The position numbers and the translations under genes were made by a program. A DNA stretch of 64,000 bases from the NCBI GenBank assembly GCA_029259415.1, contig JAPDIW010000005.1, positions 13,805 through 77,804 on the forward strand, given 5' to 3'. This DNA is from Archaeoglobi archaeon (GTDB lineage Archaea > Halobacteriota > Archaeoglobi > Archaeoglobales > Archaeoglobaceae). The notes below the pieces were generated by a model. That model was not told the origin of the DNA. It did not search any database and saw nothing but the letters and a program-made list of their open reading frames with translations. Shown here piece by piece: positions 14,599 to 43,749 of the stretch; position 1 is the stretch's first letter; each line of letters opens with the position of its first letter.

Positions 14599-15004
14599 GG
14601 AAATTGAGGTTGAACTGGACGGTTTCGGAGACATGGCTGACATAACAAATGAGGTGGAGAACTTTGTTAAAGAGAGTGGTGTTGAGAGCGGAGCAGTTCT
14701 CGTATTCAGCATCGGGAGTACCGGGGCTGTAACGACCATTGAGTATGAGCCGGGTTTGAAAAAAGACCTTCCCAGAATCATGGAGAAAATCGCACCATAT
14801 GGAGAGCACTACGAGCACCACAAAACATGGGGTGATGACAATGGCTCAGGCCACGTTAAGGCGAGCATAATTGGGCCGTCTGTTGTCATCCCATTCCACA
14901 ACCGCAGGCTGATTCTTGGGACATGGCAGCAGGTTGTTATCATCAACTTCGACACCAGAAGGAGAAAGAGGAGGGTATTGCTTCAGATTTTAAGGTCATG
15001 CTGA
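14591..15004 (+). CDS. YjbQ/UPF0047 family protein
   Basis: GSTGAVTTIEYEPG, HVKASIIG, LGTWQQV. Confidence 0.9.
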   Translation: MIKEIEVELDGFGDMADITNEVENFVKESGVESGAVLVFSIGSTGAVTTIEYEPGLKKDLPRIMEKIAPYGEHYEHHKTWGDDNGSGHVKASIIGPSVVIPFHNRRLILGTWQQVVIINFDTRRRKRRVLLQILRSC

Positions 15005-18362: not shown

Positions 18363-18770
18363 TTAATCAGCCAGTTCAACAAAAACTCTTTTATCTTCTT
18401 TTAAATATCCTACCGGAACTCCAATTTGCTTTGCTCTCTTTTTCAGCTCCTTATCATTCGTGATTAAAATACAACCATACTTTTGAGCAGCTTCAAGAAG
18501 CGATGGATCCCCTTCACTCTCAGTCTCCACGATTTCAAAATGGTCAAGAAGTTTCAGTGCAAACCTTGCTGCAACTTTTTCCTTTCCCCTCAAGCTCGAC
18601 TCAAGCTTTTCAAGCTCTCTCTTTACGGAAGCTGTAACAAAAAATTTGTTGAAACCGAACTCTCTCAACTGTCCGATGACGTCGGCTTTGTTGAGGTAGA
18701 TGTACATCAAAACATTGGTGTCTACTACAGCACACCTTACTTTATTATTCCTGCTCCTATCAGTCTCCAT
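18363..18770 (-). CDS. PIN-domain protein (Fcf1/Utp24-like)
   Basis: [22 protein letters not shown]; conserved position after aIF2-gamma. Confidence 0.88.
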
Positions 18771-19960
18771 CTGCTTCCTACTCTCCTGCTGATAGCAACT
18801 CTGGAGCCCTTCTCCGCACAAACTGGCCTTCTTAGAGTTACTTCTACAACGTCATCTCTTGCAGAAGTCACCACACCGAGGGTTATTGCAGTGCCTATTG
18901 CGAGCATCAGCGGTTCATTCATCTTTATCTTCTCAACCTCTACCTCCTCATCGAGTCCGACAACCCTCTCAAGAAGGTTAACTTCCATGGTGAAACTCGT
19001 AAGCACATCCGGTAGCTCATTTGGGTGGCCAACAACATTACCTACAAGAGCATCACTTTTAGTTAATGCAGGATCAAGCTTCGTTGCAATTCCAACGAGA
19101 CCTCCGGGAGTGGCTTCGTCAACAAACCTTCCTGAAGCCACAATACTCTGGACTTCCGTAAAAAGCGGATTCCAGTTCCCCCTGTCGTCCTTAACTCCAG
19201 GCCTTATCTCGATCTCGTCCCCGACTTTAATCCTACCTCTTGAGAGGCTTCCTCCTACCACACCCCCAAGGAGCTTTTCTGGCGGAGTACCGGGCTTGTT
19301 GACGTCGAAGCTTCTTGCAACATGCATAAGCGGAGGCGAATCGAGGTCTCTTTCAGGTGTTGGGATCGTTTCTTCGATAGCCTCTATGAGAGCATCCATA
19401 TTCACCTTTTGCTGTGCAGAAATGGGAATTATTGGAGCATTTTCGGCAATTGTCCCCTTAACGAACTCCTTTATTTCCTGGTAGTTCTCCAATACTCTCT
19501 CAGGGGTAACGATGTCTATCTTGTTCTGAGCGATAACTATTCTATTTATGCCAATTATCTGTAAAGCCATCAGGTGTTCTTTCGTCTGAGGGCGAGGACA
19601 CTTTTCATTTGCTGCAATAACGAGTACTGCCCCATCCATTATCGCAGCACCGCTCAGCATGGTTGCCATCAGCATTTCGTGGCCGGGACTGTCAACAAAG
19701 CTAACCGTTCTCAAAATTTCCGTTTCAACACCATGAATCGGGCATTTTTCCTCAACAGTATATGCCTCAGGAGGCTCGCATTCAGGACACTTCCTGAAAG
19801 TTGCATCAGCATATCCGAGCTTAATTGAAATACCTCTTTTCAACTCCTCACTATGTCTATCTGTCCAAACTCCACTCAACGCAGCCACAAGAGTGGTTTT
19901 ACCGTGATCAACATGACCGACAAGTCCAATATTGACTTCAGGAAGCGGAACTTCACTCAT
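18737..19960 (-). CDS. eif2g: Translation initiation factor 2 gamma subunit
   Basis: [28 protein letters not shown]; real start MSEVP at 19960. Confidence 0.97.
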
Positions 19961-20306
19961 GAAATCAATCCCGAGGGGAATGTATTTAAATGTTGAGGGA
20001 TTTGCAGGCAGGTTAGTAGAGGAGCTCATCACGAAGCTGGCTGAAATTTGGGGGATAAACAAGGACAGTAACCCCGGCCGGATTGATGACGCATGACATC
20101 CGTAGCCCTCCAAACCTCAACATGCATCCGGTTTATTAATTCCTTATACATTCCACATAACCCGTTCTCTGCAACTTCTCCAATCTATTCATCTCTTTAG
20201 CCTCAAAATTCACAAACTCCTTGTCATCCGGTCTGATCTGCCATATACACCCCCAACCGTTCCTTGCCTTTCAACTCCTCATGCAGCGTTGCGCAATGGG
20301 GGGGCG

Positions 20307-20903
20307 TTATTCAACGTTCAACCCATGACCCTCAAGGGGGTCAAGGGAGGGGGGTTGTTCACCTATACTTGATTTCAAGATGTGATCCTCCCACATCACC
20401 TCTGAGAGCCACATCACCTTAACTTTATCCCTACCAAATATGTACTTCTGCCTCTTCATGTTGAGCAGTCCGAGGTCGAAGTGAGCAATGTTGTGACCGA
20501 TAAGGTGCTTGGGATTCTCCCTCAGGAACTCAAAAAACTGAACTATCAGATCCTCCTCGGTTGAGTAAAGATGAAATGCAACCTCAATCCCGTAATTCTT
20601 CAGCTCCTCCTTAATCCTCTCCCTTACCTCTTCATCAACAATGCCGTGAACGAAGAAATGAACCTTTTTGGCCGAGATATCATAAAGCTGGATGCTCCTG
20701 ACCTTCGAGTTCAACCTGTAGCTCTCAATATCGAGAACGTAAGCATCCTGAATCGGAAACCATCTTGAAGCATCCAAAAAACGCTTTGTCTCTATTCTTC
20801 TGTTAAAAGGTAAATCATCCAAACTGATGCCCTGACTCTGACTAAGATCAACCTCAACATCAATATCTCCCTGCCTCGCATTTAAATCAGCCAGGGTCAG
20901 CAT
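20307..20903 (-). pseudogene. N-terminal 3'-5' exonuclease region of a family B-like DNA polymerase, truncated
   Basis: ExoI VLDIES and ExoII LIGHNIAHFDLGLL present; no ExoIII or polymerase motifs downstream in any frame I translated. Confidence 0.7.
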
Positions 20904-20998
20904 ACTTCATACTCTGGATCAACACCGTTCAGCCGGTAAACCGACTTCCAGGAACAGCCCTCGTCATCCGGATCCTCAGAAACATTTTTATAAAATAA

Positions 20999-21022
20999 AA
21001 GCCCCTCAATATTGAGGGGCTT
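20999..21022. repeat. Perfect 24-bp palindrome AAGCCCCTCAATATTGAGGGGCTT (terminator- or cruciform-like)
   Basis: Read directly; followed on the minus strand by TTATTTTAT. Confidence 0.9.
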
Positions 21023-21060
21023 GCAGCTTAACGCTGTGAGTTCCTCCAATGCCTTCCACC

Positions 21061-21339
21061 TCAGTACTCCGCATTGATCCACTGAACCCTCTTTTCTCCC
21101 TTTGTGATGTACTTTGCCGGCACCTTCAGAATCACCTTGCCGTTCCTCTTCTCTCCGTGCTTCAGAGCTGACTGAATTGCCTTCTCGCCGAAGAAACCAA
21201 TCGCATCGATTTCCTCTCCATTGTGCCTCCCGTAGACGACCAATATTTTCTGGCCGTCCTTCTCGGTTGTCTGGGCATCCACCACCTCAATTTCTTCCAA
21301 ACCAAACAGATCTCCGAGTTCCAACCCCATTTCTACCAC
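21061..21339 (-). CDS. 92-aa beta-rich protein, possible ssDNA-binding protein
   Basis: Strong RBS GGAGGTGG; located just upstream of the polymerase fragment; function is inference. Confidence 0.6.
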   Translation of the reverse strand: MVEMGLELGDLFGLEEIEVVDAQTTEKDGQKILVVYGRHNGEEIDAIGFFGEKAIQSALKHGEKRNGKVILKVPAKYITKGEKRVQWINAEY

Positions 21340-21342
21340 CTC

Positions 21343-21492
21343 CTAACTTTCGCTTTTGCTCCCCGCCGGACTTGCACCGGCTGAACCGCTATCTCGGTGG
21401 GGAGCATCCAAATTCCTGGCCCTATTCTTGAGCCACCACTCCCTGAATGCCTCAACAGCCTCACAAAACCGGTCAAGAACGTCGTAATCCAT
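21343..21492 (-). CDS. 49-aa hypothetical protein MDYDVLDRFCEAVEAFREWWLK...
   Basis: Manual translation; RBS GGAGGG; coupled to neighbours. Confidence 0.55.
   Translation of the reverse strand: MDYDVLDRFCEAVEAFREWWLKNRARNLDAPHRDSGSAGASPAGSKSES
21357..21405 (-). ncRNA. Minimal tRNA-like structure (acceptor stem, T-arm, one short hairpin)
   Basis: GCTCCCC-ACCG/AGATAG/CGGT-TCA-GCCGG/TGCAAGT/CCGGC-GGGGAGC-A. Confidence 0.5.
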
Positions 21493-21494
21493 CC

Positions 21495-21659
21495 TCAACC
21501 CTCCTCAAAAATAGAAACAAGCTCTTCAGGCGGGATGTTCTCGACCAAATGCTTCACGTTCTTCAGTATCGTCTTCCTAAGGATCACCGGATCCTTGTTA
21601 AGTTCACGCCCAAGAATCCTCGCCATTCTGCCCAGCTCTGGATACACTACTCTCGGCAT
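21495..21659 (-). CDS. 54-aa small helical protein
   Basis: MPRVVYPELGRMAR...; RBS GGAGG. Confidence 0.55.
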   Translation of the reverse strand: MPRVVYPELGRMARILGRELNKDPVILRKTILKNVKHLVENIPPEELVSIFEEG

Positions 21660-21760
21660 GTCAGCCTCCACCCGCACCTGCTGCATCTCCAGCCCTCTTC
21701 AGTTTCCTCGAGTAAACCACCGCAGGGGCAAAGGCCAGAATCAACGAACTGCTGGAGCAT
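21647..21760 (-). CDS. 37-aa zinc-finger protein
   Basis: MLQQFVDSGLCPCGGLLEETEEGWRCSRCGWRLTCRE; RBS GGAGGG. Confidence 0.65.
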   Translation of the reverse strand: MLQQFVDSGLCPCGGLLEETEEGWRCSRCGWRLTCRE

Positions 21761-21762
21761 GC

Positions 21763-21930
21763 TCAACCCTCCAATTTTTTGACCTCTATTTTATTTTCAC
21801 ATATTTTAATAAGAACCTGCTCTCCACTTTTGAATTCAAGAACTTTCACGAGTGATTTTGGCACATAGATTCTCCCTGAACCTTTTTGATCTATGTGATA
21901 CCTACCTACGCCCACACATAAATCGCTCAT
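21763..21930 (-). CDS. AbrB/SpoVT-like regulator, 55 aa (missing from ORF track)
   Basis: MSDLCVGVGRYHIDQKGSGRIYVPKSLVKVLEFKSGEQVLIKICENKIEVKKLEG; RBS AGGTGA; paralogous to 22044-22226. Confidence 0.8.
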   Translation of the reverse strand: MSDLCVGVGRYHIDQKGSGRIYVPKSLVKVLEFKSGEQVLIKICENKIEVKKLEG

Positions 21931-22040
21931 TCTATCACCTCTGATAGAATTCTACAACCAATCCTATTTAACACTTTCGATAACCTTCGATAACTCTCGA
22001 CAAACAAAACTAGGTTTAAGAACCTTACAACAAATGATAA
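21929..22040. promoter_or_regulatory. Divergent promoter/operator region
   Basis: Inverted repeat ATTCTATCA-cctc-TGATAGAAT at 21929-21950; tandem TTCGATAAC x2 plus TCTCGACAAA at 10-bp period (about 21965-21995). Confidence 0.65.
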
Positions 22041-22043
22041 GTT

Positions 22044-22226
22044 ATGGCCGAAGAAGACAAAAGCATTCTTGTATCGGTTGGGAAGATTCACATCGACTCC
22101 AAAGGAGCTGGACGCATTTATCTCAAAAAGAAAGTAATTGATGCTCTTGAAAAGATTGGAATTCAGCACGGTGATGAACTCAGAATTGAAGTTAAAGACG
22201 GAAAACTCATTATCACTAAACTCTAA
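22044..22226 (+). CDS. AbrB/SpoVT-like regulator, 60 aa
   Basis: VGKIHIDSKGAGRIYLKKKV...GDELRIEVKDGKLIITKL. Confidence 0.8.
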   Translation: MAEEDKSILVSVGKIHIDSKGAGRIYLKKKVIDALEKIGIQHGDELRIEVKDGKLIITKL

Positions 22227-22265
22227 ACCGCAATTTATTTCAAGAACAAAATATACACAGAAACT

Positions 22266-22715
22266 ATGATCTATGCATATTCCTTTGCAATCTTCGCAAT
22301 CTTGGTCATTTTCTCGGGAGTGATCGTTATAGTTACTACCCTCATTCTTAAATTTTCCAAAAATGAGCAGCTCAAAGATCGTATTAAGCCTATTGACTTC
22401 TGGCTTACCAAGACTATGAACTTCTCTTTGTTTATGATGCTTGCTTCCCTCACACTTGCTGCTATCTTCAAAGATCCCCCTGAGATGTTCATCCCTCAAA
22501 ACGTCTGGAACCTCGTTCAGCAACATGAAAGCCTTGGAGTTCTCGCTTTTGTTGTATACCTCTGGCTTACCCTCGACAGAAGACTCACAAAAGTCGAGAC
22601 GCAGATTGCACATATTGACGGAGATGTTGAATCCCTTCGAATTGACTTTAAAGAAGAATTCAAGCAACTTCGTGACGATATTAGACATATGTGGAACAAC
22701 ATCTCTAAGAAATAA
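22266..22715 (+). CDS. Membrane protein, about 3 TM segments plus C-terminal coiled coil
   Basis: Hydrophobic segments; LDRRLTKVETQIAHIDGDVESLR heptads. Confidence 0.7.
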   Translation: MIYAYSFAIFAILVIFSGVIVIVTTLILKFSKNEQLKDRIKPIDFWLTKTMNFSLFMMLASLTLAAIFKDPPEMFIPQNVWNLVQQHESLGVLAFVVYLWLTLDRRLTKVETQIAHIDGDVESLRIDFKEEFKQLRDDIRHMWNNISKK

Positions 22716-22850
22716 CATGCCTAACCTCCTCCGTGCACGTAGCCAGGGACGTGAGCACTCCACCTTTACAGGATCAAAATAGCGGCATCTCCTCGGGTTG
22801 TGTAGCCGGCAACGATAAGGGCTGTAAGGATCAAAGTTACTGCACCTCAT
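22716..22850 (-). CDS. Cys-rich small protein (N-terminus of the 307-aa track ORF); true 3' end uncertain
   Basis: MRCSNFDPYSPYRC...CRYFDPVKVEC internal repeat; coupled TGAATG start. Confidence 0.45.
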
Positions 22851-23183
22851 TCAACCCCTCCGAAAATCGCCGGCCAGCTTTCTCTTAAACTGCACATCCT
22901 CAGCCCTGACGAGCTTGGACATCACTCCTCCATCTTCCGTGAAAACCACGAAGAGGTAAGCCCGTTATTTTCCACAAGATGGTCGTGCTGCTCCCTATCC
23001 AGAGTGAACCTGCCCCTGCACCTCCCGACTCCGTTCCTGTGGCACTCCTGACAGGCTTTGATCTCCACCGGCTTACCGTCAATCTGCCCGTCAACGAGCC
23101 CGTTACTGAGAACTTGCAAGCTCCTCAGCCCTCTGACCGTTCAGGTATGCCCTCTCGTTTCTGACGGTTATCAGATCGCTCAT
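22851..23183 (-). pseudogene. Small PD-(D/E)XK nuclease (Holliday-junction-resolvase-like) with two frameshifts
   Basis: MSDLITVRNERAYLNGQRAEELA / DGQIDGKPVEIKAC...GRFTLDREQHDHL / YLFVVFTEDGGVMSKLVRAE in three successive frames. Confidence 0.7.
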
Positions 23184-23329
23184 TTCATCAGCCCCCTGTA
23201 ACAATCACGGCAGAGAGGGCAGCAACCGAGCCAGACCACCTGATCCTCTGACAACCGCTTACCGCAATAGGCACATTCTACAACTGTGATCCGCCTCTCA
23301 ACGTATTCCTTAAGAGTGATGAAAGGCAT
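23180..23329 (-). CDS. 49-aa zinc-finger protein
   Basis: MPFITLKEYVERRITVVECAYCGKRLSEDQVVWLGCCPLCRDCYRGLMK. Confidence 0.7.
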   Translation of the reverse strand: MPFITLKEYVERRITVVECAYCGKRLSEDQVVWLGCCPLCRDCYRGLMK

Positions 23330-23553
23330 CAGGCATCAGCCTCCTCAAAAACAAGATTTATGCAATCGTATGCGTTTGTCAAATGTTTAATCTTCAATCC
23401 GTGCTTTCTCGCCGTTTTCACGATTTTTCCAAAAGTTTCCTTCGCCAGAACTCCGTGAACTTTGAGATGGTAACTGAACTTTTCGCCATTGACAACTTCA
23501 ATCGAAGACGCCTGCGGCAACTCGTCAAGCAACCTCTTAACATCCTCAAACAT
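23329..23553 (-). CDS. 74-aa hypothetical protein
   Basis: MFEDVKRLL...VFEEADA; TGATG coupling at both ends. Confidence 0.7.
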   Translation of the reverse strand: MFEDVKRLLDELPQASSIEVVNGEKFSYHLKVHGVLAKETFGKIVKTARKHGLKIKHLTNAYDCINLVFEEADA

Positions 23554-23672
23554 CAGGCAACCCTCCACTCCCTGCTGACGAGCTCCCTGAGCTCCCTCAA
23601 CCTCTGCTCCCTCGGCATGCCCCTGAGCTTCGCCTTGAGCTCCTCAACCGTCATCTCCCTGTAGCCGGTCAT
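23553..23672 (-). CDS. 39-aa hypothetical protein
   Basis: MTGYREMTVEELKAKLRGMPREQRLRELRELVSREWRVA; coupled. Confidence 0.6.
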   Translation of the reverse strand: MTGYREMTVEELKAKLRGMPREQRLRELRELVSREWRVA

Positions 23673-24019
23673 TAGGCCTCAGCCTCCTTCAGAATAGCAT
23701 CCTCAACCTTACTCTCAAGCCTCTCAAAATTCATCTCAAGTTCCTCAATTCTATCATCGAGCTCTCTAATTTTCTTTTTCAATTCAGCGATTTTGTTGTG
23801 CAATATTCCGATATCTGAATATAGCATTCCGATTGTATCGTTTGCATCAGCCTCCTCATCAAAACTCAAAAAACCCTGCTCCACCATGTTTTTGACACTC
23901 AACACAAGTTCACGCATGCATCTTGGACAAATCGGATATGCACCATCTATATGCCAGAATGTCTTGGCACCGCAGCCTCTGCAGTTTCCTGGAACTCCGA
24001 ATTTATCGTATAGTGGCAT
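23672..24019 (-). CDS. Zn-finger plus coiled-coil protein
   Basis: CRGC...CPRC followed by heptad repeats. Confidence 0.75.
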   Translation of the reverse strand: MPLYDKFGVPGNCRGCGAKTFWHIDGAYPICPRCMRELVLSVKNMVEQGFLSFDEEADANDTIGMLYSDIGILHNKIAELKKKIRELDDRIEELEMNFERLESKVEDAILKEAEA

Positions 24020-24525
24020 CAGGCATCAGCCTCCTCAAAGAAATCGCTTGAAAGAACTTTCTCGAACTCTCCAGCCCTTATCATCTCGGCCATGCGCTCT
24101 TTGTAGGTCTTCAGCGCCTTGAGCCTTGAAAGAGCTGAATCTCTGTTCTTCTTGAATTCCTCAATTCTCTCTTTTGTCTGGGCGATCATCTCATCGATGT
24201 CGAGAAGCTGGCACATCTTGGCCTTGGAGTCCTCTTCTTCGAGAAGCCTCTTCTTGCGATTTTCGAGATCGGCGAGATATCCTGTATCTTCTTCTATCTC
24301 CCTTTCGTATCTTTCGATTTTTTGTTCTGTATCTGCTATGAGCCTCAGATAATCCCTATACAGATTAAGAGCCTCCTCGATCTGCAGGACCTTGAAGAAG
24401 AGCTGGCCGATTACGGCGTCTGCATCCTCATTCTCGTCGATCGCAACTCTTAGACTGATGCGCTCGTTGTTGTAGTTCTTGAGGTTGAAAAGTCTCGAGT
24501 ACTCTACCTCTCTCACCTTCATCAC
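24019..24525 (-). CDS. Coiled-coil protein, 168 aa
   Basis: E/K/R-rich heptads; coupled start and stop. Confidence 0.75.
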   Translation of the reverse strand: MMKVREVEYSRLFNLKNYNNERISLRVAIDENEDADAVIGQLFFKVLQIEEALNLYRDYLRLIADTEQKIERYEREIEEDTGYLADLENRKKRLLEEEDSKAKMCQLLDIDEMIAQTKERIEEFKKNRDSALSRLKALKTYKERMAEMIRAGEFEKVLSSDFFEEADA

Positions 24526-24698
24526 GCATCACCATCCAAAATCTCCACGTCGGCCCTCCTCAGCTTACTCGGCTCGCCCGTGTAGGGGCAGAACCGCCAG
24601 TAAGCCTCGCAGTCGCACCTGTACGCACAGTGCTGGCAGTTTTGCGGGTCTCTAAAATCCACACTCTCGAATTCCGACGCCCGGACAAAACCGAACAT
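24522..24698 (-). CDS. 58-aa Cys-rich protein
   Basis: MFGFVRASEF...CQHCAYRCDC...CPYTG; RBS GGAGGTGG. Confidence 0.65.
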   Translation of the reverse strand: MFGFVRASEFESVDFRDPQNCQHCAYRCDCEAYWRFCPYTGEPSKLRRADVEILDGDA

Positions 24699-24973
24699 CA
24701 CACACCACCTCCAAAAAATCCCCTCAACCTCTCCTCGTCCGCCTCGTCCAGCACCAGGCCGGCGTGATGCCTGAGGTTCTCCAAGACCTCCTCGGCTGTC
24801 AGGCAGTGCCAGGTCCAGATGGTTCTCCAGCCGCCGTTCCAGCGGCGTTCCAAGAAGTCCACCCTGCATCCCTGCTTGCGTTTGTAGCGGCGGATGCGAA
24901 GCAGTTCGAGGCCGTTCCAGGTGCGGCCGAGGTTCAGGGTCAGTTCCTCATTCCGTTTCGGTTTTGGGGTCAT
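24698..24973 (-). CDS. 91-aa hypothetical protein, first gene of the leftward micro-ORF operon
   Basis: TATA about 40 bp upstream; W/R-rich beta segment weakly recalls PC4-like ssDNA binders (inference). Confidence 0.65.
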   Translation of the reverse strand: MTPKPKRNEELTLNLGRTWNGLELLRIRRYKRKQGCRVDFLERRWNGGWRTIWTWHCLTAEEVLENLRHHAGLVLDEADEERLRGFFGGGV

Positions 24974-25062
24974 GGTTTCAGACCTCTCTTATAGTCCCAT
25001 CTATGAAACTAATGGTATATAAAAGTTCCGAATTAGGGTTCTGGTTTCAAAATTGAAACTAA
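24973..25062. promoter_or_regulatory. Divergent promoter with paired half-sites TGGTTTCA / TGAAACTAA
   Basis: TGGTTTCA at 24973 and 25042; TGAAACTAA at 25004 and 25054; GTTTCAA-aa-TTGAAAC at 25044-25059. Confidence 0.6.
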
Positions 25063-26005
25063 AATTAAAATCAAAAAATTTAAAAGAGATACAGTATAAC
25101 TCTTGCCGAGCTGGTGTCATTATGCCCGAGTGGCTGGATAAATTCGTTAAGGCTACCAAAAAAGCGACCGAGCAGGTGATCGATTCTTCAAAGAAAAAAT
25201 TGAATGAGATGAAATTACTTAGGGAGCTGTCGTTGCTGGAGAAATCCCTTAAAAAGCAAGTTCTGGATAGAATGAGTGATAAAAATCTGGAGAGTATTGT
25301 TAAAAACGAGAAAATTAAGAGTAAAAGTTTACTTATCAAGAAATATAAGAAGGGTAAAATCGACCTCTGGGAATACTTTGACAAGGACGAGTTGACTGAT
25401 TTGCTTGCCGACGAGCTCGACCTCGAAACCGTCCTCTTCTACGCAAAAGAGTTCAGGGTAAAGACCACAGACCTGATCCGCCAGTACAAGGAGAGGAGGA
25501 AGATCGTGATAGCCAGGCTGGCGAAGCTTCGAGATGGTGTCAAGGACTACGGGTCGCAGGATTATGAGGAATACTCCTTCACACCCGATTTGCTCGATGA
25601 GGTGTTGAGTGTCATAAAATCAGAATTTGAGCCGGAGCCGCCCATTATCAACGAGATGGACCTCGAAAAGCAGTTGTCCCTGTTCTTAAAGATGAAGGGG
25701 TACCAGTTCAAGAGGCAGTACAGTCCGGACGGTAAATACAAGGTTGACATCGTTTTTAACGGTGAGATGGGTGTCGAACTGAAGATAGCCGATGATCCGA
25801 GAAGATTGCTGAGCTGCCAAGCCAGGTGAAGCTGTACAAAAAGTGGCTGAGGGATTGTGCTGCCGTAATAGCCGTCCCTTACGGTGTCGATGAGAGCAGG
25901 TTGAGAGATTACTTCGAGCTGCTTGATGAGGAGGGGATCAGGTACATCGTAATCCGCATACCTTACCGGGCTTAAAACTTAAAAAAATTAAAATCAAAAA
26001 ATTTA
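25061..26005 (+). repeat. 22-bp direct repeat AAAATTAAAATCAAAAAATTTA flanking the nuclease gene
   Basis: Copies at 25061-25082 and 25984-26005. Confidence 0.85.
25122..25975 (+). pseudogene. Helical N-terminus plus PD-(D/E)XK nuclease, one frameshift near 25802
   Basis: KVDIVFNGEMGVELK, then in a shifted frame IAELPSQVKLYKKW...IRYIVIRIPYRA (QxxxY motif). Confidence 0.75.
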
Positions 26006-26072
26006 TTATTGGCTGCATTTGAGATAACAAGGTAAACCCTAAAAATGGCTTGAGATTAAAAAGTAGGCGTAG

Positions 26073-26795
26073 GTGATAAAGTTGCCAAGGTCGGCTACAC
26101 TGCTACGGATAGATCCTGAGGTAGTTGAGAGCGTTTTAAGTGTGTTTAAGAGCGTTGGAGAAGAAATCCCATATCAAGACGATTTAGCCATATTTATCAA
26201 GTCGTTTGAGGAATTTGATCAGTACTACATGGGACATATTCTGATCGACCTAGTGGACGAAGTAATGGTCAAAAAAAGAGTGGGTGGTGAGATCAGAGCT
26301 GAGCCTCAGAGTGTTCCTAGATGTGAGGAAGTCAAGTTTGCGTACTTTCCGAGGATCTCGGGGAGTGCTGAAATATCACACGTGACCGTCGTACTCGGTC
26401 GTGAAACCGTTGCCAGACTATTGGCGACGGTCATTGAAAGAATAGTTGGGCGTAGAGCTTTTTTGAAAGTGCGCTTCTCCTTCACACCCTCCAACGAGGC
26501 TGCTATCAGGAACAGCTTTGATGACATCGTGAGAATTCGCGGTGAAGATGTGGTTGACGCTGTAATTTCAGGAATATCGATCAAAGGAAGCAGAATCTAT
26601 CAGGCCTCTCCGGAATACCAGAAGGCCCTAAGCGGCGAGATTAAGCAAATCGGAGTGGCGTTGGGAGATGAGTGGTTTATCGTAGCTAGTTCGGGAAGGA
26701 TAACAACCTACAAAAGACTGTCGGATGAAGAGTTTATTGAGAGGGTTCGCCAAATCATTACGCGCTTTTTAAGGGCTGGGGCCGTAATCTTGTAA
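26073..26795 (+). CDS. 240-aa hypothetical protein
   Basis: Intact ORF with its own promoter; family not recognised with certainty. Confidence 0.75.
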   Translation: MIKLPRSATLLRIDPEVVESVLSVFKSVGEEIPYQDDLAIFIKSFEEFDQYYMGHILIDLVDEVMVKKRVGGEIRAEPQSVPRCEEVKFAYFPRISGSAEISHVTVVLGRETVARLLATVIERIVGRRAFLKVRFSFTPSNEAAIRNSFDDIVRIRGEDVVDAVISGISIKGSRIYQASPEYQKALSGEIKQIGVALGDEWFIVASSGRITTYKRLSDEEFIERVRQIITRFLRAGAVIL

Positions 26796-26799
26796 TTTT

Positions 26800-27501
26800 T
26801 TATATTATTCTTTTAATCTTAGACAGGTACCCGCCAAATAGCTCGTTCTCTATAATTTCAAAAGCTGCCGTAGCCTTTGCAATACTTAATATCATCACGT
26901 CAACCATATTGTCCGATTGATACGTCACCTGTCTGACGCCAAACTTATTAAGCCGTTCTTGGGCTTCCTCTTTGAATTTGCTTGCTTTAGATACATCTTC
27001 GAAAACTATTCGCATACCAAAAAAGGTTTTACTAGGATTAATGTACTGTATAAATCCCTCCGCAATGTCTGCAAGTTTCGAAACCGCTTCACTTAGGCAT
27101 TTTTTATCAATCTTTTCTGGAACCGCATAGATTTTCATTCTTTTCACGTATAAAACACCATCATCGAAGTCGGAAACGTTATCTCTCTCTTCCTCATAAT
27201 CTTCTTCCGACTCTGTAGGCAGGTACAGGTAGTCTGGAGCAACATCTTTTATTCTAACGTTCTCGGCAATGTATTCGTTTCCGTCCCTCTTAAAACCGAT
27301 ACTCGTTAGAATATCATCCAATCTAATTTTCCAGTCATCCAATCTAAGCGGTTCTACGAAGTCAACTACAAGAAATAGGCTCAAGCGGACTTTTCCATAG
27401 GAGCTTTTTTCGACTAATTTGAACGTCTTGTCTGCAAGCTTTGCTCCAATATGTGCCAAAAATCCTTTAGCAATGCCGTAACCAACAGTCTCGAGACTCA
27501 T
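26800..27501 (-). CDS. 233-aa hypothetical protein (AT-rich)
   Basis: Intact ORF convergent on the previous gene. Confidence 0.75.
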   Translation of the reverse strand: MSLETVGYGIAKGFLAHIGAKLADKTFKLVEKSSYGKVRLSLFLVVDFVEPLRLDDWKIRLDDILTSIGFKRDGNEYIAENVRIKDVAPDYLYLPTESEEDYEEERDNVSDFDDGVLYVKRMKIYAVPEKIDKKCLSEAVSKLADIAEGFIQYINPSKTFFGMRIVFEDVSKASKFKEEAQERLNKFGVRQVTYQSDNMVDVMILSIAKATAAFEIIENELFGGYLSKIKRII

Positions 27502-27856
27502 ATTACATTAGAGTTTTAGTGGTAGAAGTAAAAGTAATTTTTGGTGTTGGATTATATCCACTTCTCATCTCGCCCAGTATACCTCCTCAGGTTCGGTCAG
27601 CAGAGTAGTGGAACCCCCGGAATACGGTCAACAAGGTGTCGGAGGTAATAGCCCGAAAGGCTGTAAAATCTCGAAAGAAAGGCTGTAATGGGATTTTCTC
27701 TCCTTTAATAGAATATCTTCTTAAAAGAGATCTACTAAGAATAGGGTTCACATAAAATATAGAATAGCCAAAATTTATTTTTTGCCTTGGATCGTAATGG
27801 TTTGTGATAGGTCGATAATATTATCTCAAACTTATGAAAATAGACGATAGAACAGG

Positions 27857-28714
27857 CTAGTTCAGCCCACCCTCTTTATAAAGAACACGGTCAAGAACGG
27901 AGAGGTGGGACCTGAGCATCCTCATCCTCTCGGCAACAATTCCAAAAGCCTCCCTATCACCCAGACTCATCTCCTGCCTGTTCAGACGCTTCGAAAACAG
28001 GTTCCTCAAAAACCTCAAAAGCAGAATGAACCAGTACCTCTTCCTGTCGTCGAAAACCAAGGCAGCCCTCTTGCTCCTGCTGTAGCCCTTCCGCCTGAAA
28101 GCTCCCCTCACGCCGCTCGTGTAGCGGCCTATAAGCACATAGGTCTCGTTAGCGGCCCTCTTCTTGTGCTGCCCCGCCCTGCCCCTCACACCCTTAACCT
28201 GCCTCACGAGCTGGTTGAGGTTCTCCTGGGCCTTCGAGGGCGGGATGTACCACCTCCTCCTTCTCACCGTCAATGCAACCATGTGGACCTCGTGCCTGGT
28301 GATGGGGATGAAGAGCACCAGAGTGTCTGTGCGGCCGTCCCCCTTCTTGCCAGGCGAGAGGTGGATGTAATCTCCTGGTTGCTTGACCCCAGCGGCAGAC
28401 AGCATCTGCAAAAACAGCACCTGCATCTTTGAGGAAACATCTTCAAAATCAAAAGAAAAGGGAGGTAAGAACCTTCCAGAACGCCAGACGGGCTCGAAGA
28501 TCTCCCTGTTCAGGTCGAGAAACTCCGCCGCCTCTTTTGCCGTTCCTTTAAATCCATAATAAGTCAATGCATCAAGGAGAGCCTTTGGGAACCTCACACC
28601 TTGAGACCTGATAAGCCCCACTACCTCGTCGAGCTTACAGGCTAACTCTGAGAGGGATGAGATTAGGTTGTCGAAAGATGGTCCTTGAGTTGTTGAGGCG
28701 TCAGCTGCTGTCAT
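27857..28714 (-). CDS. 285-aa basic hypothetical protein
   Basis: Coupled behind an RHH gene; R/K-rich C-terminal half. Confidence 0.7.
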   Translation of the reverse strand: MTAADASTTQGPSFDNLISSLSELACKLDEVVGLIRSQGVRFPKALLDALTYYGFKGTAKEAAEFLDLNREIFEPVWRSGRFLPPFSFDFEDVSSKMQVLFLQMLSAAGVKQPGDYIHLSPGKKGDGRTDTLVLFIPITRHEVHMVALTVRRRRWYIPPSKAQENLNQLVRQVKGVRGRAGQHKKRAANETYVLIGRYTSGVRGAFRRKGYSRSKRAALVFDDRKRYWFILLLRFLRNLFSKRLNRQEMSLGDREAFGIVAERMRMLRSHLSVLDRVLYKEGGLN

Positions 28715-28886
28715 GTGCTTTCAAAAGTCCCCTATTGGTAAGATCTTCACGAATCAAGGCCCTAATGTACTCACTGATCGACTTTGCCCCCAGTATTGGC
28801 GATTCATTCTCTATTAACTGTTCTATGAGATCCTTCCATTCTGCAGGTACGTCAGACCAAACTCGATCGAAACCTTTACGCACCAT
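28701..28886 (-). CDS. Ribbon-helix-helix (CopG-like) regulator
   Basis: SISEYIRALIREDL signature. Confidence 0.8.
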   Translation of the reverse strand: MVRKGFDRVWSDVPAEWKDLIEQLIENESPILGAKSISEYIRALIREDLTNRGLLKAHDSS

Positions 28887-28989: not shown

Positions 28990-29310
28990 ATGGTTGAAGA
29001 ATTGGTAAAAGGTTTAGCAAAATCAGGTGCAATTAAAATCCTCAGAGCACTAAAAGATGATGGCAAACGATTGACGGATCTTGTTAGAGAAGTTGATCTT
29101 GATAAATCGACGGTATGGCGTCGTTTAGAGGAGTTTGAGAAAAAGTTATTCTTGGTTTATGTAGAATACAATAGAGAACTAAAAGCTCCAATTTATAAAT
29201 TAACACCATTCGGCCTCAAAATCCTCCAAAAGCTCGAAGAAATAGAGCAGATCTACGAGGAGGAGATGCAGAAGGCTCCTCCGAAGGGGAGGGCTTTTGT
29301 TGAGGAATGA
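28990..29310 (+). CDS. Winged-helix transcriptional regulator
   Basis: IKILRAL, LDKSTVWRRLEE, YKLTPFG. Confidence 0.85.
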   Translation: MVEELVKGLAKSGAIKILRALKDDGKRLTDLVREVDLDKSTVWRRLEEFEKKLFLVYVEYNRELKAPIYKLTPFGLKILQKLEEIEQIYEEEMQKAPPKGRAFVEE

Positions 29311-31967: not shown

Positions 31968-32154
31968 GAATATCTCTACCCACGCGGGTATAAAGCTTTG
32001 AACCCCCAGATGCAAGTGAAAACTTATCTACACATAGAGATTTGTTTTAAGCTTGCACTTGTATCAAAAGGTGTTACCCGTCTAAGTTACAGTAAGATTA
32101 ACCATGAAAATAAAAATTCTGAGCGGTTTTCGATTCCAGGAGCTCTGCAGGATC

Positions 32155-32508
32155 TCACTCGAGGCAGTAACACCCAAGAGAGGGTATGTGGACATCACCC
32201 CTCAAATGCCTGACAGCAGCGGTGATCCTCTGCACGGTAGCCACGTCAAGCTCCCTCATCACGTTGTGGAGCGTGGACTTCTTTGGAGGATTTCTGTAGG
32301 TCCACCCGTGCTGTCTCAGCATGTCAAGGTTCTCTTGGCACCACCTCTCCGCCTGCCTCAGGCTCCACCCCTCCTTGAGGGTGAGGTAGATTACCGCCGT
32401 CAGCAGGGTGCGTGGGTAGGGATGTCTTCCCCTCTTCACCTGGTGGTGATCCGACCCACCGAGGACCATCCTGCACGCCTCGAGGATAACCTCGAACTCA
32501 TCCCCGAC
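32155..32508 (-). CDS. Stand-alone transposase-type N-terminal HTH domain (IS4/IS5-like), no DDE domain; start approximate
   Basis: RGRHPYP...LTAVIYLTLKEGWSLRQAE...PPKKSTLHNVMREL. Confidence 0.6.
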   Translation of the reverse strand, partial: VGDEFEVILEACRMVLGGSDHHQVKRGRHPYPRTLLTAVIYLTLKEGWSLRQAERWCQENLDMLRQHGWTYRNPPKKSTLHNVMRELDVATVQRITAAVRHLRGDVHIPSLGCYCLE

Positions 32509-32575
32509 CAAACTACCAGCACCCCTCAGACGCAATCTGACCTGTCCAAAAAATAGAATTTTGATGAACCCTATG

Positions 32576-33166
32576 TCAAACATCCAGCGTCACGGTAGCC
32601 TCCAGGATCTTGTCTCCGTTCCACCTCCAGACCTCGCTGTGTATGGTGTAGGTCCCGTGGCTCCAGCCCCAGATCTCGACGGTGTAGGTCTTAGTCTCGT
32701 TGGGCTCAAGGTTCAGCGGCACGGGGAACGGGGCGTTGAACTCGCTGATCCTGCCATCGGGGCCTATCACCTTCACGAAGCCCGTTACGTAGTCGATAGA
32801 TCTATTGTCTACGTTCTTCAGGGTGACCAACGCCGTTCCCGCATCCAGATCGACCGAGTAGTCCACGATCTCCAGGTCGTTGTCGGTCTCTTCAGCATAC
32901 ATCTCCGCAAACCTTTCGTAGCGCTTTTGAATCTCCATGTACTCCGCCGTCTCGCTCCTCCCCTTCTGCTCCAGCTCCCTCAGCCTGTTCTCGTACTTCT
33001 CCATGATCTTCTTCACGGCCCCATCGTATGCGTCGTCGCTCACTATGCGGAGCATTCTGCCTATCTCCATGACGTGCAGGTAGAGCTGATCTGTAACGTC
33101 CTCCAGGAACATTCCTAGGGGGGCCGCAACGACCAGCGAGAGCATGACCAACGCTGCACTATTCAC
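32576..33166 (-). CDS. Signal-anchored protein with coiled coil and C-terminal Ig/CARDB-like domain
   Basis: GTG start after GGAGGTGG; VTLKN...LEPNETKTYTV. Confidence 0.75.
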   Translation of the reverse strand: MNSAALVMLSLVVAAPLGMFLEDVTDQLYLHVMEIGRMLRIVSDDAYDGAVKKIMEKYENRLRELEQKGRSETAEYMEIQKRYERFAEMYAEETDNDLEIVDYSVDLDAGTALVTLKNVDNRSIDYVTGFVKVIGPDGRISEFNAPFPVPLNLEPNETKTYTVEIWGWSHGTYTIHSEVWRWNGDKILEATVTLDV

Positions 33167-33456
33167 GACTCCACCTCCCACACAAGGCAGGGAACCACAG
33201 CCCCGTTCTCCTGCTTCCTCGCTGACTTCACAGCCACATACCAGCGTCCCTTCCACCACACGGGAAACTCGTCACCGAAATCGGCGGTGGCGAACTTAGG
33301 ATGCCTCTGTGGCTTGGGAAAAATGGTCCTTATGCCGGTCCCCTTCCTCCCGTACACAACGTAGTCCTCATCCTCGAAGCGGGCCTGCTGCTTGAACCTA
33401 ATCGTGGTCCTCTCCCGCTTGGGGCGGGTCGCAACTCGTCTCCGCCTGGGCAACAC
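33163..33456 (-). CDS. 97-aa basic protein
   Basis: RBS AGGAGGTGA; coupled to the next gene. Confidence 0.7.
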   Translation of the reverse strand: MLPRRRRVATRPKRERTTIRFKQQARFEDEDYVVYGRKGTGIRTIFPKPQRHPKFATADFGDEFPVWWKGRWYVAVKSARKQENGAVVPCLVWEVES

Positions 33457-33473
33457 ATCTCACCTCCTCCAAC

Positions 33474-34697: not shown

Positions 34698-34727
34698 GTC
34701 CGTCGGACCTCCCACCGGACTCAACCA

Positions 34728-35267
34728 TCATCTTTTGAGCACCTGTCCGAGCTCACCCATAGTCATTCCACTATACTTGGAATGGTTGAAGTAGACGACC
34801 TTCCTGTCTGCTATTAGAATTGAACCGATCAGACCCTTTGATTCGAGCTCTTTCTCTATATCCGAGACCGTCTGCTTCTTCAACCCCAACATTCTGACTA
34901 TTTTTGTGGTCGGGGCTACGCCTCCGAGTTCCTTCAGCGTCAACAGGTAATTCTTCAGGTTGTCGCTGCCGTTGAGCGAGTTTAGGGCGCTTGCCAGCCA
35001 GTCCTCGAAATCCTCTTCGACCTCTGCTTCCTCGACCTCCGTTTCCTCTTCGGCCTCCATGCGCTTTACGGCGGAACTCTTCTCCTTCAGCTTGGCTATC
35101 GTGTGGATCGTCTCGTTATCCAGATCATCTATTGCCTCAAGCAGCCTCTCGAACTCCTCCAGCACGATCTCCATGTTGGGAAAGTCCTTGCTGATCTCCC
35201 TCAGCAGCTTCTCCAGGATCCTGTTCCGGTAGAGCATCAGCCTTCCTATGGTTTCGAGTTCGCTCAT
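34728..35267 (-). CDS. Coiled-coil plus C-terminal winged-helix protein
   Basis: Acidic linker; TTKIVRMLGLKKQTVSDIEKELESKGLI. Confidence 0.8.
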   Translation of the reverse strand: MSELETIGRLMLYRNRILEKLLREISKDFPNMEIVLEEFERLLEAIDDLDNETIHTIAKLKEKSSAVKRMEAEEETEVEEAEVEEDFEDWLASALNSLNGSDNLKNYLLTLKELGGVAPTTKIVRMLGLKKQTVSDIEKELESKGLIGSILIADRKVVYFNHSKYSGMTMGELGQVLKR

Positions 35268-37203: not shown

Positions 37204-37441
37204 CCCCCGTCAGCCTGAGAACCGTATCAAGGGCGTTCAGCTGAGCTTTTAGCTCCTCTAATCTCTCTTGGGCAAACTTGCGTGTTTCTGGGTCGTTAAT
37301 GTTTCTGAGGTCAATTTCCAGCCGTTTTATGTCAAATTCCAGAATTCCTTTCTGTCTTTCGATTTCTTTTCGATCCTGTTCGGAGTATGGCACTTGGACA
37401 TTGAGCTTCTTCGCTCCATTCTTGAATCTGATGTTTATCAT
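37184..37441 (-). CDS. 85-aa coiled-coil protein
   Basis: Overlaps both neighbours. Confidence 0.65.
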   Translation of the reverse strand: MINIRFKNGAKKLNVQVPYSEQDRKEIERQKGILEFDIKRLEIDLRNINDPETRKFAQERLEELKAQLNALDTVLRLTGGGESGR

Positions 37442-39228: not shown

Positions 39229-39229
39229 C

Positions 39230-39974: not shown

Positions 39975-39986
39975 CTCCGAGAAAAA

Positions 39987-43748: not shown

Positions 43749-43749
43749 C

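Follow-up and report, generated by a model that had tools for sequence, protein, structure and literature searches.

A conserved mimic of the tRNA top half at the border of early and replication genes in proviruses of Archaeoglobi

RNase P, RNase Z and the CCA-adding enzyme measure determinants that lie in the acceptor stem and T-arm of tRNA. The T-loop of tRNA follows the consensus U54-U55-C56-R57-A58, in which U55 is universal. The archaeal RNase P of Pyrococcus cuts model hairpins made of the acceptor and T-stem-loop alone, and does so at position +1 (PMC3035440). Acceptor and T-arm structures are also cut within longer transcripts, where they are referred to as t-elements. In plant mitochondria, t-elements define mRNA ends (PMC1920247), and the tRNA-like t-elements of Haloferax are cleaved in vivo by RNase P and tRNase Z (PMC4326828).

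The element described here has a similar architecture and sits in a provirus of a heat-loving archaeon. The window, which is the whole stretch of DNA analysed, comprises 64,000 nt of the forward strand of an Archaeoglobi archaeon (GCA_029259415.1, JAPDIW010000005.1, positions 13,805-77,804). An earlier note on this DNA had described a 7-bp acceptor-like stem on a T-arm-like hairpin with 5 bp and a 7-nt loop, followed by an unpaired A, and the sequence of the minus strand from 21405 to 21357 reads exactly so. The parts are as follows.

21357-21405, minus strand: tRNA top-half mimic (minihelix) of 49 nt, with G1 at 21405 and A73 at 21357
21406, minus strand: U-1, the base immediately 5′ of the mimic, the same in 19 of 19 variants
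21405-21399, minus strand: 5′ strand of the acceptor stem, GCUCCCC, forming 7 bp with the 3′ strand
21385-21398, minus strand: small hairpin ACCG-AGAUAG-CGGU between the acceptor 5′ strand and the T-stem, the variable part
21384-21382, minus strand: linker UCA
21381-21365, minus strand: T-stem, loop and stem, GCCGG-UGCAAGU-CCGGC, with 5 bp and the 7-nt loop UGCAAGU
21364-21358, minus strand: 3′ strand of the acceptor stem, GGGGAGC, stacked on the T-stem without a linker on the 3′ side
21357, minus strand: A73, an unpaired discriminator-like base

The folding energy of the 49-mer is -28 kcal/mol, with a z score of -4.3 relative to shuffled sequences. For the single sequence, the minimum free energy (MFE) structure has another inner fold (-28.0 kcal/mol), with the tRNA-like fold 0.3 kcal/mol worse at -27.7. 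The tRNA-like fold is the MFE structure when DNA parameters are used, and it is also returned by RNAalifold on 12 homologues. The rival inner fold is rejected, as several of its pairs are broken in up to half of the homologues, and divergent variants each fold to the minihelix individually. A scan for the geometry (7 bp, N8-30, then 5 bp/7 nt/5 bp abutting the 3′ strand, with pairing restricted to Watson-Crick) detects the mimic and no other site in the window. Shuffled windows contain a mean of 0.34 such sites, with at least one site in 30% of them. The geometry in one sequence alone is thus not significant; it is conservation and covariation that establish the element.

The homologous loci were sampled independently of the mimic, using a 63-aa ORF of the neighbouring early operon. 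As MAFFT misaligned the indel-bearing copies, they were aligned with a covariance model, and an ungapped alignment of the core, leaving out the variable middle, was also used. The fold is kept in 18 distinct variants and one run-contig variant, which derive from Archaeoglobus and Geoglobus proviruses and from vent or sediment metagenomes. The covariance model (R1) scores the window element at 75.5 bits. Scans of IMG/VR with the DNA pattern, a profile of the gp05-like protein introduced below and a profile of the 63-aa ORF returned no relatives, and blastn of plasmids returned no match. Five bacterial matches to the DNA pattern, all in high-GC genomes (L009, L011, L013, L015, L017), are regarded as chance: their loops lack the U..A positions and their context is unrelated.

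The dimensions of 7 bp, 5 bp and 7 nt are constant in the 19 variants and all pairs are standard, although the final variant scan demanded perfect pairing and the loop U and A, so that a figure of “100% paired” holds partly by construction. Every copy that the covariance model detects with filters off also passed the perfect-pairing scan, the intact-length copies among them have no mismatch in the core, and the compensatory changes are independent of that selection. Compensatory double changes affect five of the 12 core pairs, three of them in the acceptor stem (3:70, 6:67 and 7:66) and two in the T-stem. Pair 7:66 runs through C-G, U.G, U-A and G-C. The covariation score is exceeded by none of 500 shuffles and by no slid control. 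Covariation in homologous loci had been proposed in the earlier note as a check on the tRNA-like reading; such changes are present, the acceptor/T-arm geometry is strictly kept, and the reading withstands the check. Most stem positions are invariant across the variants. The G.U wobbles are confined to the sense strand, with three apparently independent cases and no A.C.

The small hairpin shows compensatory changes at two of its four pairs. In relatives it is cut to 3 bp, or a 4-7 nt linker takes its place (L034, L049, L047). The middle part is either a hairpin of 3-4 bp with a 4-6 nt loop or just 4-7 nt, with an inserted length of 4-18 nt and a total element length of 36-50 nt. The claim that a single 4-bp hairpin replaces the D and anticodon arms stands for the window, where the hairpin is present at that place, but in relatives the hairpin is dispensable.

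Within the T-loop, U54 and A58 do not vary, a purine occupies position 57 throughout, and position 56 is C in most variants and A in two, giving a consensus of U-[G/U]-[C/A]-[A/G]-A-N-N. Loop position 2, equivalent to position 55, carries G in 18 of the 19 variants. It is U only in L041, whose loop is the canonical UUCGAAU. At N73, A has changed to U in two lineages while U-1 remains U, and N73 is for this reason considered a discriminator-like unpaired base. An eighth pair, U-1:A73, is rejected, being broken without compensation in these lineages. U-1 itself is invariant even though it occupies a synonymous codon position (GAU, AAU or UAU) or falls in another frame.

Compared with a tRNA gene, the element has the acceptor stem, the T-stem and loop and the discriminator, and lacks a cloverleaf with a D arm and a 7-nt anticodon loop. 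ARAGORN calls a tRNA-Leu as the sole tRNA of the window and does not call the element. The Rfam tRNA clan gives no match at E <= 10 over 20800-22000, nor at E <= 1 in six relatives. The best Rfam match over the element is Twister-sister (E = 2.7), whose 16.3 bits fall short of the gathering score of 34, and the relatives give nothing relevant. The element belongs to no tRNA gene class or Rfam family. In architecture and placement it does resemble a t-element, as an acceptor and T-arm mimic that lies inside a longer transcript, on the coding strand, in every locus.

The genes around the mimic are arranged as follows.

21343-28886, minus strand: early operon of small ORFs, homologous to the early operons of GahPV1 (in Geoglobus ahangari 234), GacPV1 (in G. 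acetivorans SBH6) and ThalV2, with the mimic at its 3′ end
28990-29310, plus strand: wHTH regulator gene (wHTH domains), divergent from the early operon
21495-21686, minus strand: the 63-aa early-operon ORF, with 49-90% identity in all related proviruses
21343-21492, minus strand: 49-aa ORF whose last 21 codons traverse the mimic and whose stop UAG (21345-21343) overlaps the Shine-Dalgarno sequence of the next gene
21336-21343, minus strand: Shine-Dalgarno sequence GGAGGUGG of the downstream gene, 14 nt past A73
21061-21330, minus strand: 89-aa ORF directly downstream, not homologous to the gp05-like gene
20307-20903, minus strand: 198-aa ORF that has the exonuclease domain of a family-B DNA polymerase but lacks the polymerase domain

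The overlap of the mimic with a 49-aa ORF, as previously described, is borne out by the ORF at 21343-21492. The N-terminal part of this ORF is homologous in L001, L007 and L014. In other relatives, an unrelated upstream ORF likewise reads through the mimic, and three frame arrangements are found in all. Four-fold sites are invariant at 5/5 positions within the element, compared with 1/8 in the neighbouring conserved ORF. With three frames in use across the element among the loci, these comparisons indicate that constraint acts at the nucleotide level and not at the protein level. Several other roles for a stem-loop at this place were considered and rejected. No T run follows the element in any variant, as an intrinsic terminator or attenuator would need; AAAAGCGAAAG or AGGAAAGGAGG follows instead. 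A slippery A_AAA_AAG, as for a frameshift stimulator, lies upstream of the element in L001 only. An anti-Shine-Dalgarno switch, pairing the acceptor CUCC with GGAG, is not kept in the GCCCCCU variants.

In every locus examined, the mimic lies in sense orientation at the border between early genes and replication genes. The relatives carry a GGAGGUG-type motif after it at a similar distance (8-20 nt). In 17 of 18 variants it is followed directly by a gp05-like gene, which codes for a PUR/Whirly-like nucleic-acid binder, and by a rolling-circle Rep, which in these loci is of the pGT5-type HUH class. The structure model of the gp05-like protein resembles Pur-alpha, MRP1/2 and PC4, all of which are single-stranded nucleic acid binders. 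The window has an intact mimic, but neither Rep nor gp05 is present there, and another, PolB-like replication gene lies downstream. The opposite is seen in L024, which retains gp05 and Rep while the element is destroyed by an inserted gene; the element is hence not indispensable. Toxin genes of the PIN, RelE and HicA types are common in these proviruses. The output of AvPV1 rises after cold shock.

The 89-aa ORF that follows the mimic in the window had been labelled “SSB-like”, a label for which there is no support at the sequence level. It has no match in Pfam, PHROGs or PDB sequence searches and is 17-21% identical to the gp05-like proteins. Its single-sequence AF2 model is beta-rich (pLDDT 79), and the Foldseek matches, to OB folds and to the N-terminal domains of PolB, are weak (E 0.1-0.3), so that an OB-like or PolB-N-terminal-like fold is weakly suggested. 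The spacing of about 17 nt given for this gene is true to the GTG of the longest ORF at 21339, while the ATG that follows the Shine-Dalgarno sequence is at 21330, 26 nt past A73. The exonuclease domain of the 198-aa ORF is supported by Pfam PF03104 (E 1.1e-6) and by the PHROGs DNA polymerase (E 6e-8). A homologue search of 5.8 billion proteins returned essentially only the ORF itself. It ends ~190 nt before the host aIF2-gamma gene and, for that reason, is probably a replication gene cut short where the edge of the provirus has decayed. Searches with the flanking small proteins in Pfam, PHROGs and PDB gave nothing beyond this PolB exonuclease domain and AbrB/MazE-like matches.

The reading that we tentatively prefer, with slightly less than even confidence, is that of a t-element-like RNase P/RNase Z processing signal on the polycistronic mRNA. 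Since it is these conserved features that RNase P, RNase Z and the CCA-adding enzyme measure, the fold is probably recognised by the host tRNA-end machinery. The mimic would act on the sense-strand transcript of the early operon. RNase P is predicted to cut before G1, between 21406 and 21405, and RNase Z after N73, between 21357 and 21356. These cuts would split the early-gene mRNA from the replication-gene mRNA, placing the 5′ end of the downstream message 14-20 nt ahead of its Shine-Dalgarno sequence. Stability and translation rate would thereby come to differ between the early and the replication half of the operon, and a tRNA-like RNA of ~49 nt might be set free. Ribosomes that translate the upstream ORF run through the element and would unfold it, so that cutting could, more speculatively, be coupled inversely to translation.

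Support for a processing signal comes from the constant geometry, the covariation of core pairs, the canonical loop of L041, the unpaired N73 and the wobbles restricted to the sense strand. The frame-independent constraint, the constant position at the border and the persistence of the element in a window without Rep point the same way. There are also points against it. The predicted cuts would leave the upstream ORF without a stop codon, and the G at loop position 2 in place of U55 has no D-loop partner. The mostly invariant stems could also mean sequence-specific recognition by a viral protein, and the co-travel with the gp05-like and Rep genes fits a DNA replication signal equally well. As the sense strand is probably also the strand displaced in rolling-circle replication, the G.U asymmetry cannot separate RNA from single-stranded DNA. 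Low-coverage metatranscriptome Logan contigs (X6, X8) have ends at 21362, 21366 and 21402, near but off the predicted cuts; co-occurring variants make the de Bruijn graph branch, which accounts for the break at 21402.

The main rival is a single-stranded DNA signal of rolling-circle replication, in which the fold, formed in the sense strand when displaced or packaged, would be a complementary-strand priming site (single-strand origin) or a landing site for Rep or gp05. The comparative data fit this rival as well, and we consider it possible, if on balance doubtful. The immediate succession of the mimic, a presumptive single-strand binder and a pGT5-type HUH Rep would be expected of such a signal, as would the MFE status of the tRNA-like fold under DNA parameters. 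The sense-only wobbles, read as G.T, suit a displaced strand as well as RNA, and L034, with the most divergent Rep (44% identical), also shows the largest changes in the stems. Conserved origin hairpins are described in the pleolipovirus SNJ2 (PMC13107129). Against this rival, the element lies inside an ORF, whereas the single-strand origins known so far have greater length and do not code for protein. An origin would also have no need of tRNA dimensions, the U and A loop positions, the UUCGAAU variant or an unpaired N73. The fold is absent from plasmids with a related Rep (pGT5, pTP1, pTN1 and the T. eurythermalis plasmid), and its fate is at odds with that of the replication genes both in the window and in L024. 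The loop bases are too variable for a Rep nick site, for which an invariant, unstructured island of 15-20 nt inside rep (GCCCCACGGGTTTAT...) is a better candidate. A double-strand origin or nick site is rejected on the same variable loop and on the absence from pGT5, pTP1 and pTN1. A pC194-type CTTGATA nick motif, found ~700 nt upstream, is set aside because just a subset of the loci shares it and because it falls within a conserved ORF.

The remaining explanations are all less probable. In one, a viral protein such as the PUR-like gp05 binds the mRNA fold and autoregulates the translation or stability of the replication genes, the likeness to tRNA being incidental. The short distance to the gp05 Shine-Dalgarno sequence (8-20 nt), the co-occurrence with gp05, a fold class that binds single-stranded RNA or DNA and the invariance of most stem positions, which suggests base-specific contacts, would agree with such an operator. 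It is rendered improbable by the window, which retains the element without gp05, by compensatory stem changes in lineages with a highly conserved gp05 core, and by the exact tRNA dimensions and canonical T-loop variant that it leaves unexplained. A trans-acting small RNA, with the excised minihelix, possibly CCA-tailed, serving as a primer or drawing off, as decoy or competitor, a tRNA-binding enzyme of the host or a defence nuclease directed at tRNA, shares the structural evidence for the processing signal. Acceptor/T-arm minihelices are textbook substrates of the CCA-adding enzyme, and the toxin genes of these proviruses would offer a context for a decoy. The element is, however, present in one copy per genome, has no promoter of its own and lacks an anticodon arm, the usual target of tRNA-cleaving toxins, so that this role seems quite improbable. 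Stated more broadly, a free top-half RNA of ~49 nt or a single-stranded viral DNA fold might hijack a host tRNA-recognising enzyme for a role other than cutting mRNA, which we hold to be unlikely; CCA-tailing, a primer or landing pad for complementary-strand synthesis, and a decoy against tRNA-directed defence may serve as examples. Least credible by far is that a tRNA gene or att site left the element behind, or that a palindrome arose by chance and is retained solely as coding sequence, even though related proviruses do integrate into tRNA genes and the geometry alone is expected 0.34 times per window. The mimic is internal, at the same operon position in proviruses that are integrated in different tRNA genes (Trp, Gln, Gly), and the window holds no second copy within 3 mismatches and no flanking direct repeats. 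It contains both acceptor strands, has in every variant except L041 a G at T-loop position 2 that is foreign to tRNA, and is unlike the published att sites (tRNA-Gly, tRNA-Trp and tRNA-Gln sequences). The earlier note had likewise held that it is not an att copy and does not resemble the tRNA-Leu(GAG) at 50309-50391, and both statements are upheld. In runs X1 and X3, the only contigs over the element are continuous with proviral flanks. The compensatory changes and frame-independent conservation exclude drift and coding constraint.

Cleavage of the mimic by RNase P and RNase Z, if it takes place, would make it the first natural tRNA-like punctuation signal in an archaeal virus, and viruses of hyperthermophiles would use the host tRNA-end machinery to separate the early and replication messages of one operon. 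With 36-50 nt and clear covariation, it would then also offer a natural substrate, both compact and minimal, for work on archaeal RNase P, RNase Z and the CCA-adding enzyme; the CCA enzyme of Archaeoglobus fulgidus is a classical model in this field. Should folded single-stranded DNA be the active form, the mimic would be the first candidate single-strand origin of an archaeal rolling-circle virus. A hijacked tRNA-recognising enzyme would make it the first tRNA-mimic replication or counter-defence element in archaeal viruses. Under either the RNA or the DNA reading, the mimic marks the exact recombination joint for replication-module exchange among recently described marine pleomorphic viruses.

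Among known systems, the mascRNA/MALAT1 and MEN-beta elements likewise present a tRNA-like fold in a long transcript. There, RNase P (and RNase Z) cuts give a mature long RNA and a small tRNA-like RNA. These elements are eukaryotic and nuclear and form a full cloverleaf of ~60 nt, in contrast to the mimic with its lack of an Rfam match. The t-elements of plant mitochondria (PMC1920247) and of Haloferax volcanii, found upstream of 5S rRNA and also used, in engineered form, as a tool (PMC4326828), resemble the mimic in having an acceptor and T-arm within longer transcripts. They have no functional anticodon, recognition by RNase P and/or RNase Z makes RNA ends, and one example is archaeal. The mimic differs in being viral, in lying within a protein-coding ORF at an operon module border, in its smaller size (36-50 nt, a bare minihelix in some lineages), and in having mostly G at loop position 2, and its cleavage is a prediction. 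Model minihelices such as pATSer (PMC3035440) share the 12-bp coaxial stack, the 7-nt T-loop, the single-stranded 5′ leader and the discriminator. They are, however, laboratory constructs with a continuous hairpin, whereas the mimic has a bulge or hairpin of 4-18 nt at the 5′-side junction and no 3′ CCA.

On the DNA side, comparison was made with the hairpin and inverted repeat downstream of rep in the pleolipovirus SNJ2 (PMC13107129) and with the single-strand origins of bacterial rolling-circle plasmids. Origin hairpins and the mimic are alike as conserved, strand-specific stem-loops by the rep of pleomorphic archaeal viruses, with structure conserved over sequence. The mimic is set apart from SNJ2 by its association with an HUH pGT5-type Rep rather than Rep-Arvir and by its position upstream of rep and inside an ORF. 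It is also set apart from origin hairpins in general by a loop that is not conserved as a nick site would be, by its tRNA-specific dimensions and by its presence in a window without Rep. Viral mimicry of tRNA that exploits host tRNA enzymes is also seen in the 3′ tRNA-like structures of plant RNA viruses. These lie at the 3′ ends of RNA genomes, where they undergo aminoacylation, bear CCA and often contain a pseudoknot, whereas the mimic, with no anticodon-like domain, is an internal element of an archaeal DNA virus.

On the minus strand, from 21405 to 21357, the tRNA mimic of the window reads GCUCCCC ACCGAGAUAGCGGU UCA GCCGG UGCAAGU CCGGC GGGGAGC A. Its parts are as follows.

Outer (acceptor-like) stem: 7 bp, with its 3′ strand abutting the inner stem
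Inner (T-arm-like) stem, minus strand: 5 bp, with a 7-nt loop
Insert on the 5′ side, minus strand: a 4-bp hairpin and a 3-nt linker
3′ end, minus strand: an unpaired A after the outer stem

The 49-mer is stable (−28 kcal/mol, z = −4.3 versus shuffles). The minimum free energy structure (MFE) of the single sequence has another inner pairing, 0.3 kcal/mol better than the acceptor/T-arm fold; with DNA parameters, the acceptor/T-arm fold is itself the MFE. A geometric scan of the 64 kb returned the mimic as the only site, but as shuffled windows yield a mean of 0.34 sites of this geometry, the shape alone proves nothing. The case for the mimic is instead carried by its homologues.

These were sampled with a DNA pattern over GTDB genomes, with the conserved 63-aa upstream ORF (21495–21686, minus strand) over JGI metagenomes, a search blind to the mimic, and with the gp05-like protein, a probable PUR/Whirly-like nucleic-acid binder found 3′ of the mimic in relatives. 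Together with one metatranscriptome contig, this gave 19 distinct versions, whose sources are genomes and MAGs of Geoglobus and Archaeoglobus and metagenomes of vents and sediments. All 19, in a final list from a scan demanding full pairing that every covariance-model copy (filters off) passed, have an outer stem of 7 bp, an inner stem of 5 bp directly adjoining the outer-stem 3′ strand, and a 7-nt loop. The loop follows U-[G/U]-[C/A]-[A/G]-A-N-N in 19/19, and the base just 5′ of the mimic (U-1) is likewise always U; the unpaired base after the acceptor stem (N73) is A in 17 variants and U in two. The insert hairpin varies (ACCG/CGGU, AUCG/CGGU, UCCC/GGGA, UCCU/AGGA, CCCC/GGGG and 3-bp versions) and is replaced in three loci by UAUC (L034), AGCC (L049) or UCACAUC (L047). 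Since this middle part is free to vary, the conserved unit is the bare acceptor/T-arm minihelix of 36–50 nt. In one locus, L041, the T-loop is the textbook UUCGAAU, and the T-stem that bears it is compensated (GCUGG/CCAGC). The window copy differs from that of L007/L042 by one loop base.

In a structure-guided alignment of 12 copies, 189/189 cells pair, with double changes at three pairs, and RNAalifold independently gives the acceptor/T-arm fold. In the homologues, several pairs of the rival inner fold cannot form. When 14 distinct rows are aligned ungapped over the core, compensatory double changes appear at 5/12 core pairs: 3:70 (U-A/C-G), 6:67 (C-G/U-A), 7:66 (C-G/U.G/U-A/G-C) and two T-stem pairs. 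Covariation scores 0.333, against 0.110 ± 0.021 for shuffled alignments; 0/500 of these reach that value, and every slid control lies below it. The fold described in the earlier note is conserved and covarying, and the compensatory changes for which that note had called are present. Its observation is confirmed and strengthened: the tRNA top-half mimic is real and under selection. Only a putative additional pair, U-1:N73, is ever broken (U/U in two lineages, uncompensated). N73 therefore behaves as an unpaired, discriminator-like base, and the conservation of U-1 is independent of pairing.

An upstream ORF reads through the mimic in every lineage, in differing frames. Most variants are read GCU CCC... 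and ...GCC GGU GCA; in L001 and L021 the 5′ part is one base out of frame and a 1-nt insertion restores the frame, and yet another frame is used over the T-arm of L019-type copies. The upstream ORFs fused to the mimic include two unrelated families. Four-fold degenerate sites are invariant at 5/5 positions in its 3′ half, versus 1/8 in the adjacent, well-conserved 63-aa ORF. The constraint therefore acts at the nucleic acid level.

The surrounding chromosome is Archaeoglobaceae-like, with the following features in the window.

18737–20113: aIF2-gamma
~20.2 kb to ~44.6 kb: mobile element
48736–49923: FtsZ
50309–50391: tRNA-Leu (GAG)

When 20200–24200 was compared with phage records by blastn, matches were confined to 21354–21694 and fell in three "thalassapleovirus" proviruses, GahPV1, GacPV1 and ThalV2. 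These have been described in PMC10919331, where the mimic is unmentioned. They share with the window an early operon of small ORFs, divergent from a wHTH regulator gene; their morphogenetic and replication genes are not shared. The mimic forms the very end of the common part, with homology ceasing at its 3′ edge, and its edges are branch points in the Logan assemblies of several runs. A higher-GC block (0.53–0.57) at 32000–44600 codes for a HerA/DUF87-like ATPase, a subtilisin-like S8 protease and a 942-aa protein with CarboxypepD_reg and Gly-zipper motifs. As tblastn of the 942-aa protein and the ATPase against a phage collection that includes the thalassapleoviruses gave no match, the mobile element is a mosaic that has only the early operon in common with these viruses.

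Other features of the early operon were noted. Divergent AbrB/MazE-like small genes (21763–21930, minus; 22044–22226, plus) flank an insertion and adjoin a 307-aa ORF (21927–22850), whose N-terminal part is homologous to a small Zn-finger-like early gene of relatives. The direct repeat GGCATCAGGCATCAGCCTCCTCAAA, 25 nt long, is found at 23325 and 24015 (region 23325–24039), with a 76% copy at 23668; its copies mark successive gene junctions ~345 nt apart.

In relatives, a highly conserved gp05-like protein of ~100 aa lies directly 3′ of the mimic in 17/18 variants (L001 2876–3172 and homologues P0003–P0022; unannotated in the published genomes). Its AF2 model (pLDDT 80) has four strands and a long helix and is closest to Pur-alpha, MRP1/MRP2 and PC4/Sub1. 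Pur-alpha, MRP1/2 and PC4 bind single-stranded nucleic acids, and on this model the protein probably binds single-stranded DNA or RNA. A rolling-circle Rep of pGT5 type follows; the Reps are mutually only 44–68% identical. Within rep, ~420 nt into the ORF and where the protein is otherwise variable and of low complexity, is a second invariant island, GCCCCACGGGTTTAT(C/G)T(C/T)(G/C)ACC, with synonymous sites fixed despite this divergence. It is a candidate rolling-circle nick site, is absent from the window, and was located in four relatives.

L001 3626–3650
L002 4034–4058
L018 4184–4208
L034 3867–3890

In L018 (5600–5838) and L041 (4608–4638), the 3′ end of the Rep ORF enters a tRNA gene, the integration site, so that the reading frame appears to end within att/tRNA sequence. 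In the window, the mimic is followed instead by three successive minus-strand ORFs of 89, 61 and 198 aa (20307–21330). They resemble fragments of a family-B DNA polymerase that has been truncated: an N-terminal-like fold is succeeded by an exonuclease domain carrying DIE and NxxxFD motifs, and the polymerase domain is missing. As the run stops ~190 nt short of the aIF2-gamma gene of the host, the edge of the mobile element seems to have decayed here; the window mimic may therefore be a recent relic.

The mimic is tentatively read as a t-element-like RNA processing signal, the explanation favoured here. The 7 + 5 bp stack, the U1/R4/A5 positions of the 7-nt loop, the unpaired N73 with no CCA after it, G1-C72, U-1 and the canonical T-loop of the L041 lineage are tRNA-specific features, for which an explanation is at hand only if the fold is read by tRNA-end enzymes. 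Wobble pairs occur on the sense strand only, in three seemingly independent cases (chance ~1 in 8 under strand neutrality), although this is presumably also the strand displaced by Rep. Metatranscriptome contigs (coverage 3–16x) stop at 21362 and 21366 and begin at 21402, near the cuts predicted for RNase P and RNase Z but not at them; position 21402 coincides with a de Bruijn branch where two co-occurring variants diverge. A single-stranded-DNA replication signal is less probable. The gp05-like gene, with its single-stranded-binder-like model, and the Rep gene behind it favour such a role, but the loop varies more than a nick site should, the island inside rep is the better origin candidate, and plasmids with a related Rep have no mimic. 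Moreover, the window mimic is intact without Rep or gp05, ahead of the apparent decayed polymerase gene, and L024 retains both genes after losing its mimic. L024, a metagenomic relative, holds the only defective copy, which arose by gene insertion and not by point mutations: a 141-aa gene (760–1250), related to window ORF 22922–23119, sits exactly in the mimic and took the T-loop, 3′ T-stem and 3′ acceptor strand, with gp05-like and Rep genes still downstream.

An RNA operator for a viral protein is improbable, and a trans-acting tRNA-like small RNA slightly more so. Least credible is a tRNA or att remnant or a chance palindrome. ARAGORN and Rfam do not recognise the mimic in the window, and it is neither a tRNA, a terminator, a known ribozyme nor a member of any Rfam family. 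It is internal to the proviruses and has no second copy in the window, and the proviruses occupy different tRNA genes with different att cores; it is not an att remnant, in line with the earlier note, which had excluded an att copy of the window tRNA-Leu. Separately, at the end of the ApPV1 record is the 3′ piece of a tRNA, GTAGGGGTTCGAGGGTTCAAATCCCTCCCCCCGCA (14661–14694), almost identical to the 3′ end of the window tRNA-Leu (GAG), whereas the ApPV1 att given in PMC10919331 is different and 11 nt long.

The mimic is absent from AvPV1 and ApPV1 and from Thermococcales plasmids with a related Rep, and no description of the family was found in the literature searched. It defines a small new family in the rolling-circle pleomorphic proviruses of Archaeoglobi.
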